From an uncultured archaeon (lineage in GTDB: Archaea > Asgardarchaeota > Heimdallarchaeia > Heimdallarchaeales > Heimdallarchaeaceae): a stretch of DNA of 31,058 nt. Position numbers and translations under genes: made by a program. The first letter of the stretch is position 1. The number at the start of each line of letters is the position of its first letter. Shown in pieces: positions 26,750 through 31,058 of the stretch. Location: NCBI GenBank assembly GCA_964549075.1, contig CAZJUB010000009.1:1-31058 (forward strand), given 5' to 3'. The notes below the pieces were generated by a model. It was not told where the DNA came from, ran no database searches, and saw only the letters and a list, made by a program, of their open reading frames with translations.

Positions 26750-27895
26750 TTACAGATATTTCATTTCTTTTGGTGTATTGGATAACCGAATACTTCCCTC
26801 TTTTGTAACTACACAGTCATCTTCAAGACGAACACCAAATTCATTTTCGAAATATAAACCTGGTTCTACAGTAATTACGGAATTCTCTAGTAGCGTTTTA
26901 TTTGGTGATTCTGGTGTTCCTTTGCGAATACCTATTCCAATATCATGAGTTTCTATTCCTAAAGGATGTCCTGTTGAATGAATATAATATTTTTCTGGAT
27001 CATATCCATATTCGACGAACTTATCTCTCACAGCCTGTTCAACATCGTCACTAATTGCTCCAGCTCTTATCAGTGAATATGCAGCTTCTTTTGCTTCATG
27101 AACTGCTTCATAAACGTGCAATACTTTTTCTGGAGGATTTCTTCCAATCCAATATGTGTGAGTTATATCTGAATTTGAGCCTTCGTAAGCTACACCATAG
27201 TCTATCAGTAAAACATTTTCCAATTCAATTTTTTTCTCTCCAGATTTATGGTGCGGTATAGCTGCATTAGAACCTGAAGCAACAATTGCTTCAAAAGCAA
27301 TCCCTCCACGTTTATTAGCTTCATATTCTACTAAAGCAGCTATTTCTTTTTCTGGAATTCCTGATTTGATTTTAGGTTCTACTACCTCTTCCATTAATTC
27401 TTCTGCTAAACGAGCTGCAATTTTGTGGTTCTCGATTTCTTTTTTTGTTTTAATAGCTCGGATTTCAAAAATTAAATCCTTTGCAGATACATAATTTATT
27501 TTTGGATTTATTTTTGTTAAAGCTCTAAATGCTCCACTTGTCAGTATATCGAGGTTTAAGTTTGAAAAAACTTCTTCTTCTTCCACAAAATTTAATGCCA
27601 TCTTTGATTCTGGAGTAAAACTATTTAGAAGATTTTTGATAAAATCCTGCAATTCTGATCCTTTTGAATATTGAATTACTTCATAAATTTCTTCATTTAC
27701 ATTCATTGCTTCCATTCGTGAAGTAATGATTTTTGGTTTTCCTGTTTGAGGAATAAAAGTCAGAGTTGGTGATGAAAACCACTTCTCTAACAAATATCTT
27801 TGATTAACATCATAGGAGTGATGACAGAAAACTATCCATCCATCGATAGCTTGATTTTTCAGAACTCCTTGAATTCTTTTAATTTTCTCATTCAA
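26750..27895 (-). CDS. pepQ: Xaa-Pro peptidase (M24B, prolidase-like)
   Basis: IPHH, LIDYG, SDITHT, HSTGHPLG..THD, TVEPGLY, GVRLEDD. Confidence 0.9.
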   Translation of the reverse strand: MNEKIKRIQGVLKNQAIDGWIVFCHHSYDVNQRYLLEKWFSSPTLTFIPQTGKPKIITSRMEAMNVNEEIYEVIQYSKGSELQDFIKNLLNSFTPESKMALNFVEEEEVFSNLNLDILTSGAFRALTKINPKINYVSAKDLIFEIRAIKTKKEIENHKIAARLAEELMEEVVEPKIKSGIPEKEIAALVEYEANKRGGIAFEAIVASGSNAAIPHHKSGEKKIELENVLLIDYGVAYEGSNSDITHTYWIGRNPPEKVLHVYEAVHEAKEAAYSLIRAGAISDDVEQAVRDKFVEYGYDPEKYYIHSTGHPLGIETHDIGIGIRKGTPESPNKTLLENSVITVEPGLYFENEFGVRLEDDCVVTKEGSIRLSNTPKEMKYL

Positions 27896-28511
27896 ATTCT
27901 ACACATTCCTTAAATATTGATTGAAGTTTTGGTGGTAATAAATTAGTTTCTATTATTTTTATTAAATCTTTAAATGTGTCTATGTCTCTGTAAGTTTCAT
28001 TATATAATTTTAAGTAAAAGCCTATTTTGTTATTCTCAAAAAAATCCTGAAATCTAATAGAAGAGTTTTTGCCAAATACTCCTGGGAATTTAATGGTTTT
28101 ATTAAAACAGATAATACTGGTACCCTTATCTTCAGTTGGAGCTAATACTACCTTATTCATTTTAATATGATCTTCAAAAATCTCTTCTATTTCTGTAGAT
28201 GATAATAAAGGTAAATCGGCCATTACTATAGCAATAATATTTTCTGGTACATCATCAAGTGCTTTGAGAATAGAATTATTTAGGTCATCTGCTTTATCTT
28301 TCAAAACGTAATAATTCCCTTGAAAATCTAAATCAGGTTTATGGGTTAGAATATACACTTTACTAATGTCTTTTACTTGTAATGTTTTATTGATTACATT
28401 TTGAGTAACACTTTTGAGAAGTTTTTCCAAAAGTTCCTCATTCAGGTTAGATCTAAGTCTACTCTTATCTGAAATGGTTCCTCTATATGGAATTAATATC
28501 GCTTTTTTCAT
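27888..28511 (-). CDS. cofC: CofC guanylyltransferase (F420 biosynthesis)
   Basis: ILIPY, KSRL, DLN, VMADLPLL, LAPTEDKGTS, FGKNS, DIDTFKDL; in an operon with cofD. Confidence 0.85.
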   Translation of the reverse strand: MKKAILIPYRGTISDKSRLRSNLNEELLEKLLKSVTQNVINKTLQVKDISKVYILTHKPDLDFQGNYYVLKDKADDLNNSILKALDDVPENIIAIVMADLPLLSSTEIEEIFEDHIKMNKVVLAPTEDKGTSIICFNKTIKFPGVFGKNSSIRFQDFFENNKIGFYLKLYNETYRDIDTFKDLIKIIETNLLPPKLQSIFKECVEFE

Positions 28512-29299
28512 CTATTCACCTTCATATATTCAGCCACTAAATCTTCCATAAATGCAGGATTATCAATAAGTGGTCTAGCAATCGATATAGCTTTAGCACC
28601 TACAGATAGCATCTGATGTATATCTGAAATGTTTCTTACAAGATTATTCCCTATAATAGGAATGTTGGTTTTATTAGAGAATTTTTTTATCAGCCCTAAG
28701 TCAGCTTGTTTTTTACCTGGTATCATCGCATCTATGTGAATATAGTCGCAGTCGTTTCTCTCTAAAATCTCGATAAGATTGAAAACATTATTAACCACAT
28801 TTCCTCTAATCTTTATTCCAATTTTTGCGTTTTTATTTAGTAAACGAATTTTTTCCAGAAGTTCTTCTAGATATGGAGTATTTGTTAACAAAGCTTGACC
28901 TCCGCCAATTTCAGTTATTTCTTTTTGTCTACAATGAGCGTTAATTTCAAAATAATCTACAAAATTACTGAGTGAATTTAACCAAGATTTACTCATTAAA
29001 TCTATCTCAACAATTCTTAAATTAATAGCAATTTTTTGACTTTTCTTGCTTTTTCTCAGATGAAGGTTTTCTTCACACCATCTTTTTATGTCTGAAGTAT
29101 CTTCAGGAAGTAAAAATTCTTTTCTTCCCCTTGTAATAATGTTTTTTGTTGCTTTGATATTTTTTTCATCTATTGAAAATCCACCTAATGTAACCATACC
29201 TACTCCAGAATTCAACATTGTTTGGCAGAATTCAGCATTAGCTATCCCCGCAATTGCAGATTGGATTATAGGAGGAAGGCAAAAATAATCAATTTTCAT
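28508..29299 (-). CDS. Dihydrouridine-synthase-like FMN TIM-barrel protein (MJ0144-like)
   Basis: SAIAG, LGGFSID, RGRKEF, EINAHCRQ, GGGQALL, KIRGN, HIDAM, IIGNN, GAKAISIAR. Confidence 0.85.
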   Translation of the reverse strand: MKIDYFCLPPIIQSAIAGIANAEFCQTMLNSGVGMVTLGGFSIDEKNIKATKNIITRGRKEFLLPEDTSDIKRWCEENLHLRKSKKSQKIAINLRIVEIDLMSKSWLNSLSNFVDYFEINAHCRQKEITEIGGGQALLTNTPYLEELLEKIRLLNKNAKIGIKIRGNVVNNVFNLIEILERNDCDYIHIDAMIPGKKQADLGLIKKFSNKTNIPIIGNNLVRNISDIHQMLSVGAKAISIARPLIDNPAFMEDLVAEYMKVNR

Positions 29300-30230
29300 C
29301 AGATGTCACTTGATTTAATATCATGGTAGCTAGATTTTTAGCTTTTGTTATATCTTTGAATAAGATATCCGCTAATTGTACTTTCATACTAGTTTCACTT
29401 TCTATAATATCTACAAATTCATAATCAGTTTTATCAATGAAGATGGTACTGCATAAATCTTGATACATCTTAGCAATTTCAAGAGGTGTTACTTCAAGAT
29501 TTTTCGCTTTCATTAGTAGAGCTGTTGGTCCACTGATCGGTGCTTGACCTATAATTGGACTAATTGCAATCACTCGATCTCTATTTTTTAACAACTTTCT
29601 TTTTATCTGATTCAGATTAATAATTGGTCCAATGCTAGTTACGGGATTACTTGGACCTATTATTATAATTTCACTTTTATCAATGTTGTATAATGCTTTT
29701 TTGGGAGTTTTAGCATTTTGGATATTTTTAATATAAATATCCTTTATCTCAACTTCTCCTTTTTCCTTTACCCAAAATTCTTGAAAATGAATGTCTCTAC
29801 CATCTCTTGTTATAATTCTGGTTTCTATGTGTGTATTTGAGCTTGGATACACTTGTGTTTTTATTCCCAAGTTTTGTGAAATTTGCTTTGTAATTTCAGA
29901 TAAATTCTTACCCATTTTGAATTGTTCAGTTCTAAAAATATGTGTGGAAAAATCTTTATCTCCTATTTGAAACCAGGTTTCATACCCTAATCTGCTCAAG
30001 GAGTTTAATGTGTAAAAAGTATCCCCTTTGATTCCCCAATACTTTTCTGTATCTAGTAATTTACTTAGTAAATAGATAATAGTGTCTATATCAGGAGAAA
30101 CATATAATCCATATATCTCTATATCATCTGCTGAATTAGCTATGATACAAATTTGATTATCTTGTATAATCTCTCTAAAACCTTGAATTAATTTAGGAGT
30201 TCCTGTTCCTCCTGAAAGAAAAGTAATCAT
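29289..30230 (-). CDS. cofD: 2-phospho-L-lactate transferase CofD
   Basis: LSGGTGTPKL, YVSPDIDT, WFQIGDKD, HFQEFWV, IGPSNPVTSIGP, SPIIG..PISGP. Confidence 0.95.
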   Translation of the reverse strand: MITFLSGGTGTPKLIQGFREIIQDNQICIIANSADDIEIYGLYVSPDIDTIIYLLSKLLDTEKYWGIKGDTFYTLNSLSRLGYETWFQIGDKDFSTHIFRTEQFKMGKNLSEITKQISQNLGIKTQVYPSSNTHIETRIITRDGRDIHFQEFWVKEKGEVEIKDIYIKNIQNAKTPKKALYNIDKSEIIIIGPSNPVTSIGPIINLNQIKRKLLKNRDRVIAISPIIGQAPISGPTALLMKAKNLEVTPLEIAKMYQDLCSTIFIDKTDYEFVDIIESETSMKVQLADILFKDITKAKNLATMILNQVTSDEN

Positions 30231-30242
30231 GATGAGTTGTTG

Positions 30243-30706
30243 TCATGCTGGCATATAAGCTTTGCATCGTTGAACATGTTTCGTAGTTGTTGTGCATGTC
30301 ATTCTTGGTGGGTCTACACACACTCTACGGAGGTACATCACGTACCCTCCTACCCCGTTCACACTTCTGAAAGGAAGTGCTTGCGGATCGCTTTTGATCA
30401 GTATATTGTAAGCAGCATTCACATCAACATTCAGCTTGTATCCCCGTGCTGAAGTGAAGATACCTCGTGTAGTCAGTCTTCCAGCATACTTGGTTCGTTT
30501 CTGTGGGAACTCGTTATCTAAGATACTACTCTTAGAAGTAAAGTGTTTAGCTCGTAATAATTGAGAAATTTTCGTTGTTGATTAAGTACAGATTTAACCT
30601 GAAAATTTGCTCGATTGTAGAGTTTCTTGACTCGATGATAAAAGATGCTTAGAACTGGAGTAAAAGGTAGTTCGATGGTTTCTATCCTCAGTACTTTTGT
30701 CATCAA
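30243..30706 (-). pseudogene. tnpB: Internally deleted, frameshifted tnpB (IS200/IS605 or IS607 RNA-guided nuclease)
   Basis: N-terminal fragment MTKVLRIETI...HRVKKLYNRANFQVK...FLNYYELNTLL is joined out of frame at about 30540 to a C-terminal fragment TSKSSILDNE...YAGRLTTRGIFTSARGYKLNVDVNAAYNILIK...GVGG (RuvC-III NADxNAAxNI motif). Confidence 0.85.
30250..30455 (-). ncRNA. Putative TnpB omegaRNA/reRNA scaffold plus guide
   Basis: Hairpins at 30430-30453, 30362-30379 and 30329-30350 overlap the tnpB 3' end, the established position of omegaRNAs. Extent is inferred. Confidence 0.45.
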
Positions 30707-30859: not shown

Positions 30860-31058
30860 TTAAGATTTTGCCTTTTTACTTGAAGATGTCTTTTTAGTTG
30901 ATGTTGACTTCTTAGTTGCAGGTGTTTTCTTCGCTGGAGCTTTCTTCACTGGAACTTCCTTTGCTGGAGCTTTCTTCACTGGAACTTCCTTTGCTGGAGC
31001 TTTCTTCGCTGGAACTTCCTTTACTGGAGCTTTCTTCGCTGGAACTTCCTTTACTGGA
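30860..31058 (-). CDS. C-terminal Lys/Pro/Ala-rich (histone H1-like) tail of a gene entering from the right edge
   Basis: ...PVKEVPAKKAPVKEVPAKKAPAKEVPVKKAPAKEVPVKKAPAKKTPATKKSTSTKKTSSSKKAKS*, stop TAA at 30862-30860. Confidence 0.8.
   Translation of the reverse strand, partial: PVKEVPAKKAPVKEVPAKKAPAKEVPVKKAPAKEVPVKKAPAKKTPATKKSTSTKKTSSSKKAKS
30931..31058. repeat. 30-bp coding tandem repeat (at least 4.3 copies, 15-bp sub-period)
   Basis: Unit TTGCTGGAGCTTTCTTCACTGGAACTTCCT, with only a few substitutions, at 30931, 30961, 30991, 31021 and 31051 (partial). Confidence 0.95.

Follow-up and report, generated by a model that had tools for sequence, protein, structure and literature searches.

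A dihydrouridine synthase-like flavoprotein encoded between cofD and cofC is a candidate enoyl reductase of F420 biosynthesis in archaea

[quoted passage not shown] The source of the F420 lactyl linker in archaea has been a question for about two decades, and the lactate kinase that was proposed to supply it has never been found. The Outlook of a 2021 review places the origin of 2-phospholactate in methanogens among the long-standing questions of the field (PMC8498797). A revision of the pathway in 2019 predicted an archaeal dehydro-F420-0 reductase, named 'CofX', without identifying it (PMC6450877). CofC and CofD of M. jannaschii yielded only dehydro-F420-0 in yeast, and the same report describes the reductase of organisms that carry only CofE as 'a stand-alone nitroreductase or a yet-unknown enzyme' (PMC10949242).

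The 31,058-nucleotide stretch of archaeal DNA that we analyzed (the window) carries a gene of the MJ0144 family between cofD and cofC. Based on sequence comparisons, we consider its 263-aa product a candidate for the enoyl reductase that makes the F420 lactyl linker, with a probability of roughly 0.7. The literature that we searched yielded no paper proposing a role as F420 reductase for this family.

The gene cluster and its middle protein

The genes of the cluster are as follows.

29289..30230, minus strand: cofD (2-phospho-L-lactate / enolpyruvyl transferase), 313 aa, the first gene of the overlapping set
28508..29299, minus strand: gene for the putative F420 enoyl reductase, a 263-aa TIM-barrel protein of the FMN type from the MJ0144 family ('archaeal Dus')
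27888..28511, minus strand: cofC (guanylyltransferase activating 2-phospholactate or PEP), 207 aa
26750..27895, minus strand: PepQ-like M24 metallopeptidase, with a TTG start

In profile searches, CofD exceeds the cut-off of TIGR01819 (316.3 bits versus 257.45) and also matches PF01933 (161.9 bits). CofC exceeds the cut-off of Pfam PF01983 (67.1 bits versus 22) and scores below that of the NCBIfam equivalog TIGR03552 (94.8 bits versus 105). The ORF coordinates confirm the overlaps reported in the preliminary description, which are 11 nt between cofD and the middle gene (29289-29299) and 4 nt between the middle gene and cofC (28508-28511, sequence ATGA), all on the same strand. The M24 peptidase ORF (PF00557, 171.9 bits; PF01321, 33.3 bits) overlaps cofC by 8 nt, provided that its TTG start is real. 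It is likely a member of the operon.

Against TIGR00736 ('MJ0144 family RNA dihydrouridine synthase-like protein'), the 263-aa protein scores 195.4 bits (E 1e-57), and the alignment spans profile positions 1-226 of 231; the next-best family, DusB, reaches only 32 bits. The TIGR00736 cut-off is higher, at 218.7, and most relatives in the window's phylum also fall short of it, with higher scores in only 5 of the 201 genomes surveyed. The length of the protein is typical of the family, whose members have about 240-290 aa as single-domain proteins; fusion to a methanogenesis marker 9 domain raises this to about 350-390 aa. TIGR00736 is also the 'archaeal Dus' group of Kasprzak et al. 2012. The protein has no match to the nitroreductase family PF00881. 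It does exceed the cut-off of Pfam Dus PF01207 (37.1 bits versus 20.4), over profile positions 80-225 of 311 only.

Three motifs stand out in the translation: EINAHCRQ (N120, H122, C123 and R124), KIR (K163-I-R165) and IHID (H188-I-D190). The numbered residues are invariant in an alignment of 20 sequences. Together they make up the signature described for the MJ0144 family, in which NxHC[K/R] takes the place of NxGCP and HxD that of HxR (PMC3674756), with KxR kept. The canonical motifs NxGCP and HxR are absent, and NAHCR and HID stand where they would be; the Cys and the KxR Lys are retained. When profiles are aligned, EINAHCRQ falls onto DINMGCPAKK of E. coli DusB with its Cys on the NxGCP Cys, as expected from the earlier suggestion that it resembles the Dus catalytic-Cys motif. 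Four basic residues that are invariant in the family (R57, R59, R95 and R124) are absent from Dus.

The AlphaFold2 model (pLDDT 95.3) has one alpha/beta barrel and a terminal helix (residues 249-262), with neither a second domain nor a C-terminal helical tRNA-binding domain. The PDB folds closest to this model are those of Dus2, 1vhn, DHOD B, DusB and DusC (TMq 0.65-0.70), and the best PDB sequence match of the protein is DusB 6ei9 (E 1e-17). The preliminary description had used the bare TIM barrel as a sign that tRNA is not the substrate. The model agrees with the architecture, but the architecture is not diagnostic. A Dus with canonical motifs from the same genome (NLGCPS, G000:C29:732-1478) has only 248 aa, and thus shortness alone is no argument against an RNA substrate.

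The Pfam match and the solved sequence relatives, which are DusB and other Dus enzymes, would suit an archaeal RNA (tRNA) dihydrouridine synthase whose adjacency to cofD reflects inherited gene order rather than shared function. Indeed, the family has been listed as the eighth Dus subfamily, 'archaeal Dus', with Q57608 of M. jannaschii as its representative (PMC3674756, PMC9775027). We judge this assignment very unlikely to be correct. The window's genome has a separate Dus with the canonical NxGCP motif, and the substitutions in NxHC[KR] and HxD set the family apart from all proven Dus enzymes (PMC3674756). The Dus papers that we consulted classify the MJ0144 family, and we found no experiment in them supporting Dus activity. 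A literature search on the name 'MJ0144' returned no papers. The distribution of the family, described below, also bears on this assignment.

Distribution of the family relative to cofD

We surveyed 201 genomes of the window's phylum, calling the MJ0144 family at 117 bits or more. The family is present in 41 of the 133 genomes that carry cofD and in none of the 68 that lack it. In 40 of these 41 genomes, the gene immediately follows cofD in the same orientation, and the remaining case (G080) is split by contig ends. Both the phylogenetic profile and the neighborhood therefore tie the family to cof genes, as the preliminary description had anticipated.

Many family-negative genomes carry a different gene beside cofD. 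Six of eight scanned ORFs of ~190-225 aa that flank cofD in such genomes match PF00881 (E 1e-26 to 1e-41), and a profile of the cofD-flanking nitroreductases finds the C-terminal domain of M. tuberculosis FbiB as its best PDB sequence match (4xom, E 4e-39). Scores for FbiB-C/FbiE-type nitroreductases are bimodal over the 201 genomes, and a match was considered strong at 163 bits or more. Strong matches occur in 70 genomes (72 rows), and 67 of the 72 are located less than 2 kb from cofD or are cofE fusions (ORFs of 451-492 aa). Not one of the 201 genomes has both an MJ0144-family gene and a strong nitroreductase match. In the window's genome, the top match to TIGR03553 is located away from the cluster and reaches 41.9 bits, compared with a cut-off of 249.55.

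An RNA-modifying enzyme would have no reason to track cofD or to exclude an F420-specific nitroreductase. For canonical Dus genes, the distribution is independent of cofD: one family (f26) has Dus in 3/3 genomes and cofD in 0/3, and 18 of the 41 genomes with an MJ0144-family gene also have a canonical Dus. However, no canonical Dus was detected at E 1e-25 in the other 23 of the 41, and thus the MJ0144-family protein is the sole Dus-like protein there, as would be expected if it modified RNA.

Some observations weigh against a function in F420 biosynthesis. Neither the MJ0144 family nor a cofD-linked nitroreductase is found in 25 of the 133 cofD-positive genomes. In five members of the window's genus and family (G097, G115, G193, G148 and G157), cofD is followed directly by cofC, and one of these (G115) retains a 35-residue remnant of the family gene (tblastn E 4.6e-6). 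In a CofD tree, these five genomes fall at three separate points, which we read as at least three losses, and such repeated loss means that the enzyme is dispensable in this genus and family. Moreover, the genome counts overstate the number of independent cases, since gene order is common to kin.

The linkage recurs in other archaea. Among the best 80 family loci in species genomes, cofD is directly upstream in 21, and another 30 are Methanobacteriaceae loci with the order cofE-cofD-arfA-[family gene], where cofD is one gene apart. The remaining loci include 9 with flanks too short to judge and 20 without cofD in the flank. The phylum of the Methanobacterium locus has one family copy in all 131 of the 131 genomes sampled. 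In a second phylum, that of the Methanoperedens locus, cofD is directly upstream in 35 of 100 family-positive genomes. These 35 form two groups: one with 70% GC, probably haloarchaeal, and one in which the protein is fused to a marker-9 domain. Both groups, like Methanobacteriaceae, keep cofD adjacent, and no cofC was found in their flanks.

In the second phylum, 48 of the 148 genomes with cofD gave no family match at E 1e-12, which again counts against the F420 function. No strong nitroreductase match was found in any of these 48. Five of them, rechecked with the A1 profile, gave matches of only ~20 bits, and two of the five carry mcrA; the family is missing from some Mcr-bearing archaea. Thus, the earlier designation of the protein as the missing F420 reductase is favored by linkage and exclusion, but it does not extend to all organisms with cofD.

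Gene context in methanogens hints at another function. The longer gene order in Methanobacteriaceae is cofE-cofD-arfA-[family gene]-atwA-mmp9-sirC-like-hemA. Fusions to the cysteine-rich marker-9 domain occur in loci with Methanoperedens or Methanocellales in their titles, as well as in a third group (L130, L131), and in 18 fused loci the available flank contains no cof gene. The fusion or adjacency to marker 9 in many methanogens, and the position beside the MCR component A2 gene in Methanobacteriaceae, may indicate a different process that is specific to methanogens. The family might therefore be a flavin reductase for a different cofactor step that is merely co-regulated with F420 genes. 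This step could be tied in methanogens to marker 9, MCR component A2 or tetrapyrrole genes, or its substrate could be a precursor of a flavin or deazaflavin. We regard this as unlikely. The examined loci of Asgard archaea and of 70% GC genomes have no marker-9 match, yet the gene is tightly linked to cofD there, and an unrelated step leaves the exclusion of the F420-specific nitroreductase unexplained. Furthermore, the marker-9 domain could simply bring electrons to the proposed F420 reductase reaction.

Proposed reaction and substrate

The proposal that the protein reduces an enolpyruvyl group for F420 is supported by co-occurrence with cofD, by exclusion of the nitroreductase, and by recurrence of the linkage in Methanobacteriaceae and in the second phylum. 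The predicted fold and the Cys, Lys and His motifs are those of flavin-dependent C=C reductases, which we also count in its favor. We therefore envision an enzyme of the Dus/dihydroorotate dehydrogenase type that reduces a C=C bond with FMN. It would serve F420 biosynthesis rather than RNA modification, as a non-orthologous replacement of the nitroreductase-fold enzymes of mycobacteria, Thermomicrobia and many Asgard archaea. CofC would activate phosphoenolpyruvate using GTP, and CofD would move the enolpyruvyl-phosphate onto Fo to give dehydro-F420-0. The MJ0144-family enzyme would then reduce the enolpyruvyl group: the methylene carbon would accept hydride from the reduced FMN, and C123, the conserved Cys of EINAHCRQ, would protonate the alpha carbon. 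The outcome would be the L-lactyl group of F420-0.

Both the substrate and the electron donor in this scheme are inferred. Reduction of dehydro-F420-0 is suggested by the cofD linkage together with the mutual exclusion between the family and the cofD-linked nitroreductase, and this compound is our tentative first choice. A possible but rather unlikely variant, which is nested within the enoyl reductase proposal and not additive to it, is that the enzyme reduces free PEP to 2-phospho-L-lactate, or EPPG to LPPG. Acting upstream of or at CofC/CofD, such an enzyme would be the sought source of 2-phospholactate, in place of the lactate kinase 'CofB'. We know of no PEP reductase and of no precedent for the reduction of PEP to 2-phospho-L-lactate.

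In favor of this variant, archaeal CofC/CofD pairs assayed in vitro are described as preferring 2-phospholactate or as accepting it with high specificity (PMC8764529), which fits a PEP-reducing enzyme better than a dehydro-F420-0 reductase. The presence of the family in every sampled genome of the Methanobacterium locus's phylum and the overlap of the window gene with cofC as well as cofD are also consistent with this variant. The four invariant arginines would be in keeping with a substrate that is small and highly charged, and a supply of 2-phospholactate would equally lead one to expect exclusion of a dehydro-F420-0 reductase. However, the neighbor retained from lineage to lineage is cofD rather than cofC, and a swap of isofunctional reductases accounts more simply for displacement of the nitroreductase. 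Free 2-phospholactate is also reported to inhibit central enzymes (PMC6450877).

Only slightly less likely is the general form of this idea, in which the entire 'archaeal Dus' subfamily makes 2-phospho-L-lactate from PEP and does not modify RNA. Its members would then provide the missing first step of the classical archaeal F420 pathway (the 'CofB' function), and in methanogens the marker-9 domain would feed electrons to it.

Members of the MJ0144 family can be cloned and examined in assays that are already in use, which makes the family a concrete candidate. If it proves to be the enoyl reductase, the F420 pathway would be completed for methanogens, the 70% GC group and many Asgard archaea, and a second, unrelated reductase would be available for heterologous F420 production in synthetic biology. 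[quoted passage not shown]

Comparison with known flavoenzymes

The MJ0144-family protein would share with FbiB-C/FbiE the proposed reaction, and it occupies the same slot beside cofD. The nitroreductases form dimers of an unrelated fold and family, whereas the protein described here is predicted to be a TIM barrel of the Dus/DHOD type with a conserved catalytic-type Cys. Their fusion partners also differ: CofE for the nitroreductase, and in some methanogens the marker-9 domain for the MJ0144 family.

Dus enzymes (DusA/B/C and Dus1-4; PF01207, COG0042) have in common with the family the FMN-type TIM barrel, a Cys at the catalytic position, KxR and the His of HxR. They differ in carrying NxGCP and HxR instead of NxHC[KR]Q and HxD (PMC3674756). 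In addition, the MJ0144 family has an invariant R-x-R-x-E-F loop and R95, appears from the model to lack the C-terminal helical domain, and follows cofD in its distribution, which canonical Dus does not.

The same barrel is seen in class 1 DHOD and in the FMN domain of dihydropyrimidine dehydrogenase (1ep2, 5ue9; TMq 0.66-0.68), although identity is only 12-17%, substrate-binding residues are not in common, and there is no linkage to pyrimidine genes. These enzymes act on alpha,beta-unsaturated carboxyl or carbonyl systems, with hydride transfer from FMN N5 and a Cys serving as acid/base, and the family would share this chemistry. DHOD B and dihydropyrimidine dehydrogenase receive electrons from Fe-S partners, and by analogy the fused marker-9 domain might be an electron supplier.

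MurB (UDP-N-acetylenolpyruvylglucosamine reductase) did not appear among the matches in any of our searches, and it has an FAD-binding PCMH-type fold with no sequence relation to the MJ0144-family protein. Nevertheless, it provides a precedent for the proposed chemistry: with the help of a flavin, it reduces the enolpyruvyl moiety of a nucleotide-linked substrate to a lactyl moiety.

A Dus-like gene between cofD and cofC

The right end of the window carries four ORFs in one orientation according to the ORF listing, and these include the gene for a dihydrouridine synthase (Dus)-like protein of the MJ0144 family.

The four genes, with profile scores.
29289-30230, minus strand: CofD, 313 aa; TIGR01819 at 316 bits against a cut-off of 257
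28508-29299, minus strand: MJ0144-family protein, 263 aa; TIGR00736 at 195 bits (E 1e-57), below the curated 218.7
27888-28511, minus strand: CofC, 207 aa; PF01983 at 67 bits against 22, and NCBIfam at 94.8, below the cut-off of 105
26750-27895, minus strand: PepQ-like M24 peptidase, 381 aa, by profile search

The ORF coordinates reproduce the overlaps of 11 and 4 nt that the preliminary description gave for cofD, the Dus-like gene and cofC. The M24 peptidase ORF overlaps cofC by 8 nt, provided that its TTG start is real. Scans of the window for tRNA genes and Rfam families gave no matches.

Genes for M24-family peptidases adjoin cofC or cofD both in the window and in a genome of family f8 (L102:4123-5283, minus strand), and those of two genomes from another phylum overlap cofD by 4 nt (L114:5969-6826 and L119:5959-6816, both minus strand). 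This adjacency may be due to chance because the proteins differ in size (381-386 aa for the PepQ-like proteins versus 285 aa). Just upstream of cofD in the window lies a 112-codon open frame (30243-30581, minus strand) that ends ...YKLNVDVNAAYNILIK... and is located in a stretch of 43-51% GC, with the neighbouring genes at ~30%. Its end resembles the C-terminal RuvC motif of TnpB / IS605 OrfB proteins, and the frame could be what is left of a transposon-associated nuclease. Tandem repeats occupy the window edge (30860-31058), where the minus-strand product is rich in Lys, Ala, Pro and Val (PAKEVPVKKA...) and the frame continues beyond the window.

The title of TIGR00736 is "MJ0144 family RNA dihydrouridine synthase-like protein", and the window protein matches the Pfam Dus model more weakly (37 bits, mid-profile only). 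An alignment of 20 diverse homologues includes invariant residues E118, A121-H122-C123-R124-Q125, K163, R165, H188, D190, N218-N219, S239, R242 and R95, and R57, R59 and E61 of the loop R-x-R-x-E-F are nearly or fully invariant. The best PDB sequence match of the family profile is E. coli DusB (E 1e-17). The profile alignment places EINAHCRQ on DINMGCPAKK of DusB, in agreement with the earlier proposal of a motif like that of the Dus catalytic cysteine, and also pairs KIR with KIR, IHVD with IHGRT, and IGNNS with IANGD. Similarly, the suggestion that the protein is only a TIM barrel is supported by an AlphaFold2 model (pLDDT 95.3) consisting of a single barrel and one terminal helix. Foldseek matches in the PDB (TMq 0.65-0.70, 11-17% identity) are the human Dus2 catalytic domain, 1vhn, Lactococcus dihydroorotate dehydrogenase B, DusB and DusC. 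Thus, the aligned motifs and the fold matches of the model predict that the protein belongs to the Dus/DHOD class of flavin C=C reductases; it keeps the acid/base cysteine and carries its own residues around it.

We take M. jannaschii Q57608 to be MJ0144. Kasprzak et al. describe an eighth Dus subfamily, "archaeal Dus", with exactly this signature, wherein NxGCP has H for G and K or R for P, and HxR has D for R (PMC3674756). A 2022 paper uses Q57608 as the representative of the subfamily (PMC9775027). No experiment on any member of the MJ0144 family was found in the accessible portions of the Dus literature, which only classify it. A search of a 5.8-billion-protein set found no fusions of the MJ0144-family domain to CofC, CofD or CofE, which is weak evidence, and the best 150 of 4605 representatives are only stand-alone ~240-290 aa or ~350-390 aa forms.

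Linkage to cofD and displacement by a nitroreductase

Five profiles were searched against 201 genomes drawn evenly from the window's phylum. Matches to cofD (E 1e-20 or better) were present in 133 genomes and matches to TIGR00736 (E 1e-10 or better) in 42, of which 41 reach at least 117 bits. The remaining match, in genome G104 (43 bits, 339-aa frame), is a canonical Dus that was also recovered by the canonical Dus search, and so it was not counted. All 41 family members are found among the 133 cofD-positive genomes and none among the 68 cofD-negative genomes. In 40 of them the gene immediately follows cofD in the same orientation (coordinates compared by hand); for the 41st (G080), contig ends truncate both genes. 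The expected association with cofD is therefore evident in both phylogenetic profile and gene neighbourhood, and it spans eight coded families (f1, f3, f5, f11, f12, f14, f19 and f22).

The cofE search revealed frames of 451-492 aa adjoining cofD in family f13, which lacks the MJ0144 family, and cofE of ~250 aa in genomes that carry it. When the cofD regions of 20 MJ0144-family-negative genomes were fetched and eight flanking ORFs of ~190-225 aa were scanned, six proved to code for nitroreductase-family proteins (PF00881, E 1e-26 to 1e-41), the other two being a divergent CofC and an Rpb5/Mrr-like protein. The best PDB sequence match for a profile of the six is the C-terminal domain of M. tuberculosis FbiB (4xom/4xoo/4xoq; E 4e-39). 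This domain is a proven dehydro-F420-0 reductase (PMC6450877), and its stand-alone form has been named FbiE (PMC8498797).

The distribution of nitroreductase matches in the 201 genomes is bimodal, with 70 genomes at 163 bits or more and 18 with only matches of 130 bits or less, all of which are on contigs other than that of cofD. Among the 72 strong matches, 65 are directly beside cofD, either as a stand-alone gene upstream or as the C-terminal half of a fused cofE frame, two are at a distance of 1.4 kb, and five cannot be judged because of contig ends. A strong nitroreductase match and the MJ0144 family were found together in none of the 201 genomes. Of the 133 cofD-positive genomes, 41 carry the MJ0144 family, 67 the nitroreductase and 25 neither. 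This pattern is one of non-orthologous gene displacement, and it is our strongest argument that the MJ0144-family protein is probably the reductase that makes the lactyl link of F420.

A third replacement candidate, a conserved ~305-311-aa ORF with no Pfam or NCBIfam match, is located directly upstream of cofD in family f2 of the same order as the window (L096:6949-7866, minus strand; L097:5025-5945, plus strand; L098:6363-7298, minus strand). It was rejected as a substitute because homologues (20-28% identity), including G000:C12:44697-45599 in the window's own genome, are present in MJ0144-family-positive and -negative relatives alike, and because it has no profile similarity to the family.

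A scan for the motif E[IL][ND]AHCRQ[PKE] in one genome per species identified at least 598 stretches, of which 581 were confirmed. The best 80 were kept, and phmmer searches with the Cof proteins of the window served to classify their loci. Among these best 80, cofD is directly upstream in 21, with titles naming Heimdall-, Borr-, Frey-, Jord-, Hod-, Sif- and Promethearchaeota, and within 2 kb in 30 from Methanobacteriaceae, while nine have too little upstream sequence to judge. The other 20, whose titles include Methanoperedens and Methanocellales, have no cofD in the flank, and in 18 of these the MJ0144-family gene is fused to a methanogenesis-marker-9 domain.

Gene order in Methanobacterium ferruginis is purO, cofE, cofD, GTP cyclohydrolase IIa, MJ0144-family gene, MCR component A2, marker 9, siroheme-synthase-N-like and hemA, of which the genes other than purO make up a cofactor supercluster (L027:5026-12896). 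In other methanogens the MJ0144-family domain is joined to marker 9, a cysteine-rich protein that might serve for electron input. One family copy is present in each of the 131 genomes sampled from the phylum of M. ferruginis. A second phylum, that of a Methanoperedens locus, has cofD in 148 of 151 genomes and the MJ0144 family in 100, and in 35 of these 100 the gene is directly downstream of cofD (coordinates compared by hand). Fetched examples from this phylum have two arrangements, one in 70% GC genomes, which are probably haloarchaea, and the other in 44-52% GC genomes with a marker-9 domain on the gene. Long open frames of the 70% GC genomes were considered as cofD fusions and rejected, since hand comparison of coordinates shows that they and cofD are not in the same reading frame. 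H. volcanii, used as a control, likewise matches the MJ0144-family profile. On the basis of these loci and counts, linkage to cofD occurs in at least four separated groups. We did not find cofC beside the gene in the non-Asgard loci examined.

Canonical Dus enzymes and losses of the gene

Canonical Dus proteins (PF01207, E 1e-25 or better) were detected in 64 of the 201 genomes, and their distribution does not depend on cofD. They are found in 35 of 40 genomes of f13, the nitroreductase type, in all three genomes of f26, which lack cofD, and in 18 of the 41 MJ0144-family-positive genomes, including the window's own. The latter protein (G000:C29:732-1478, locus L002) has 248 aa and the motifs NLGCPS, KLR, VHAR and ANGDI. 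Four genomes that lost the MJ0144-type gene (G097, G115, G193 and G157) also carry a canonical Dus. Given this distribution across cofD-positive, cofD-less and gene-loss genomes, the MJ0144 family and canonical Dus behave as unrelated traits. The presence of canonical Dus in 64 of 201 genomes contradicts the literature statement that archaea have no Dus other than "archaeal Dus".

It is highly improbable that the MJ0144-family protein is a true RNA Dus, as it occurs strictly with cofD whereas canonical Dus does not depend on it. A second, RNA-directed activity is conceivable, since this is the only Dus-like protein found in 23 of the 41 family-positive genomes. Some other cofactor-related reduction is an unlikely role, if slightly less so than dihydrouridine synthesis.

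The MJ0144-family enzyme is not universal among F420 producers. The second phylum includes 48 cofD-positive genomes without the family, and no strong nitroreductase match was detected in that phylum (best, 135 bits). Five of the 48, two of which carry mcrA, were rechecked with the MJ0144-family profile and gave only ~20-bit matches. Among ten ORFs scanned next to cofD in 15 family-negative genomes of this phylum there was no obvious reductase; the ten are a mixture of M24 peptidase, CitG-like, Fic, signal-peptide peptidase, DUF763, radical SAM and methyltransferase proteins. The CitG-like gene (PF01874) directly follows cofE-cofD in two mcrA-bearing genomes without the MJ0144 family (L120:5934-6782 and L124:5964-6827, both plus strand).

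Within the genus and family to which the window belongs, five genomes (G097, G115, G193, G148 and G157) have cofC immediately after cofD. In G115, the 184-nt gap between them (L092:6947-7129) still encodes MJ0144-family residues 3-37 (48.6% identity, E 4.6e-6). Because the spacer retains this remnant of the first ~35 codons, G115, which is closely related to the window's organism, represents a recent deletion. On a CofD tree (86 rows, quick IQ-TREE), the gene-less genomes occupy three positions among family-positive kin, which amounts to at least three losses of the gene. G157 and a family-positive MAG have nearly the same CofD. Relatives might cope with the loss if dehydro-F420 can still serve as a cofactor or if there is an alternative route.

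The substrate and the F420 precursor

The literature is split on the precursor of F420. Bashiri et al. report that CofC uses PEP, give an [M-H]- of 512.07 for dehydro-F420-0, and predict that archaea encode a yet unknown reductase ("CofX") away from cofE (PMC6450877), and Lee et al. obtained only dehydro-F420-0 with MjCofC/CofD in yeast (PMC10949242). Hasan et al. found archaeal CofC/CofD pairs, among them that of "Ca. H. archaeon", to be highly specific for 2-phospholactate, which restored this compound as the likely archaeal precursor (PMC8764529).

We favor dehydro-F420-0 as the substrate of the MJ0144-family reductase, with a probability of roughly 0.4, because cofD is the conserved partner, the slot is the same as that of FbiE, and an isofunctional exchange is the simpler event. 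A less likely substrate is PEP or EPPG, which would fit the in vitro preference for 2-phospholactate (PMC8764529) and the four extra invariant arginines of the family. The nitroreductase-linked CofDs form one clade on the CofD tree (SH-aLRT 99), but this clade also follows taxonomy, and therefore the tree does not discriminate between the substrates.

A literature search, which excluded most subscription journals and all supplements such that absence is not proof, found no proposal of the MJ0144 family for F420 synthesis. The candidate makes a long-standing question directly testable. If the MJ0144-family protein does make the lactyl link of F420, a known type of reaction would have a new enzyme family.
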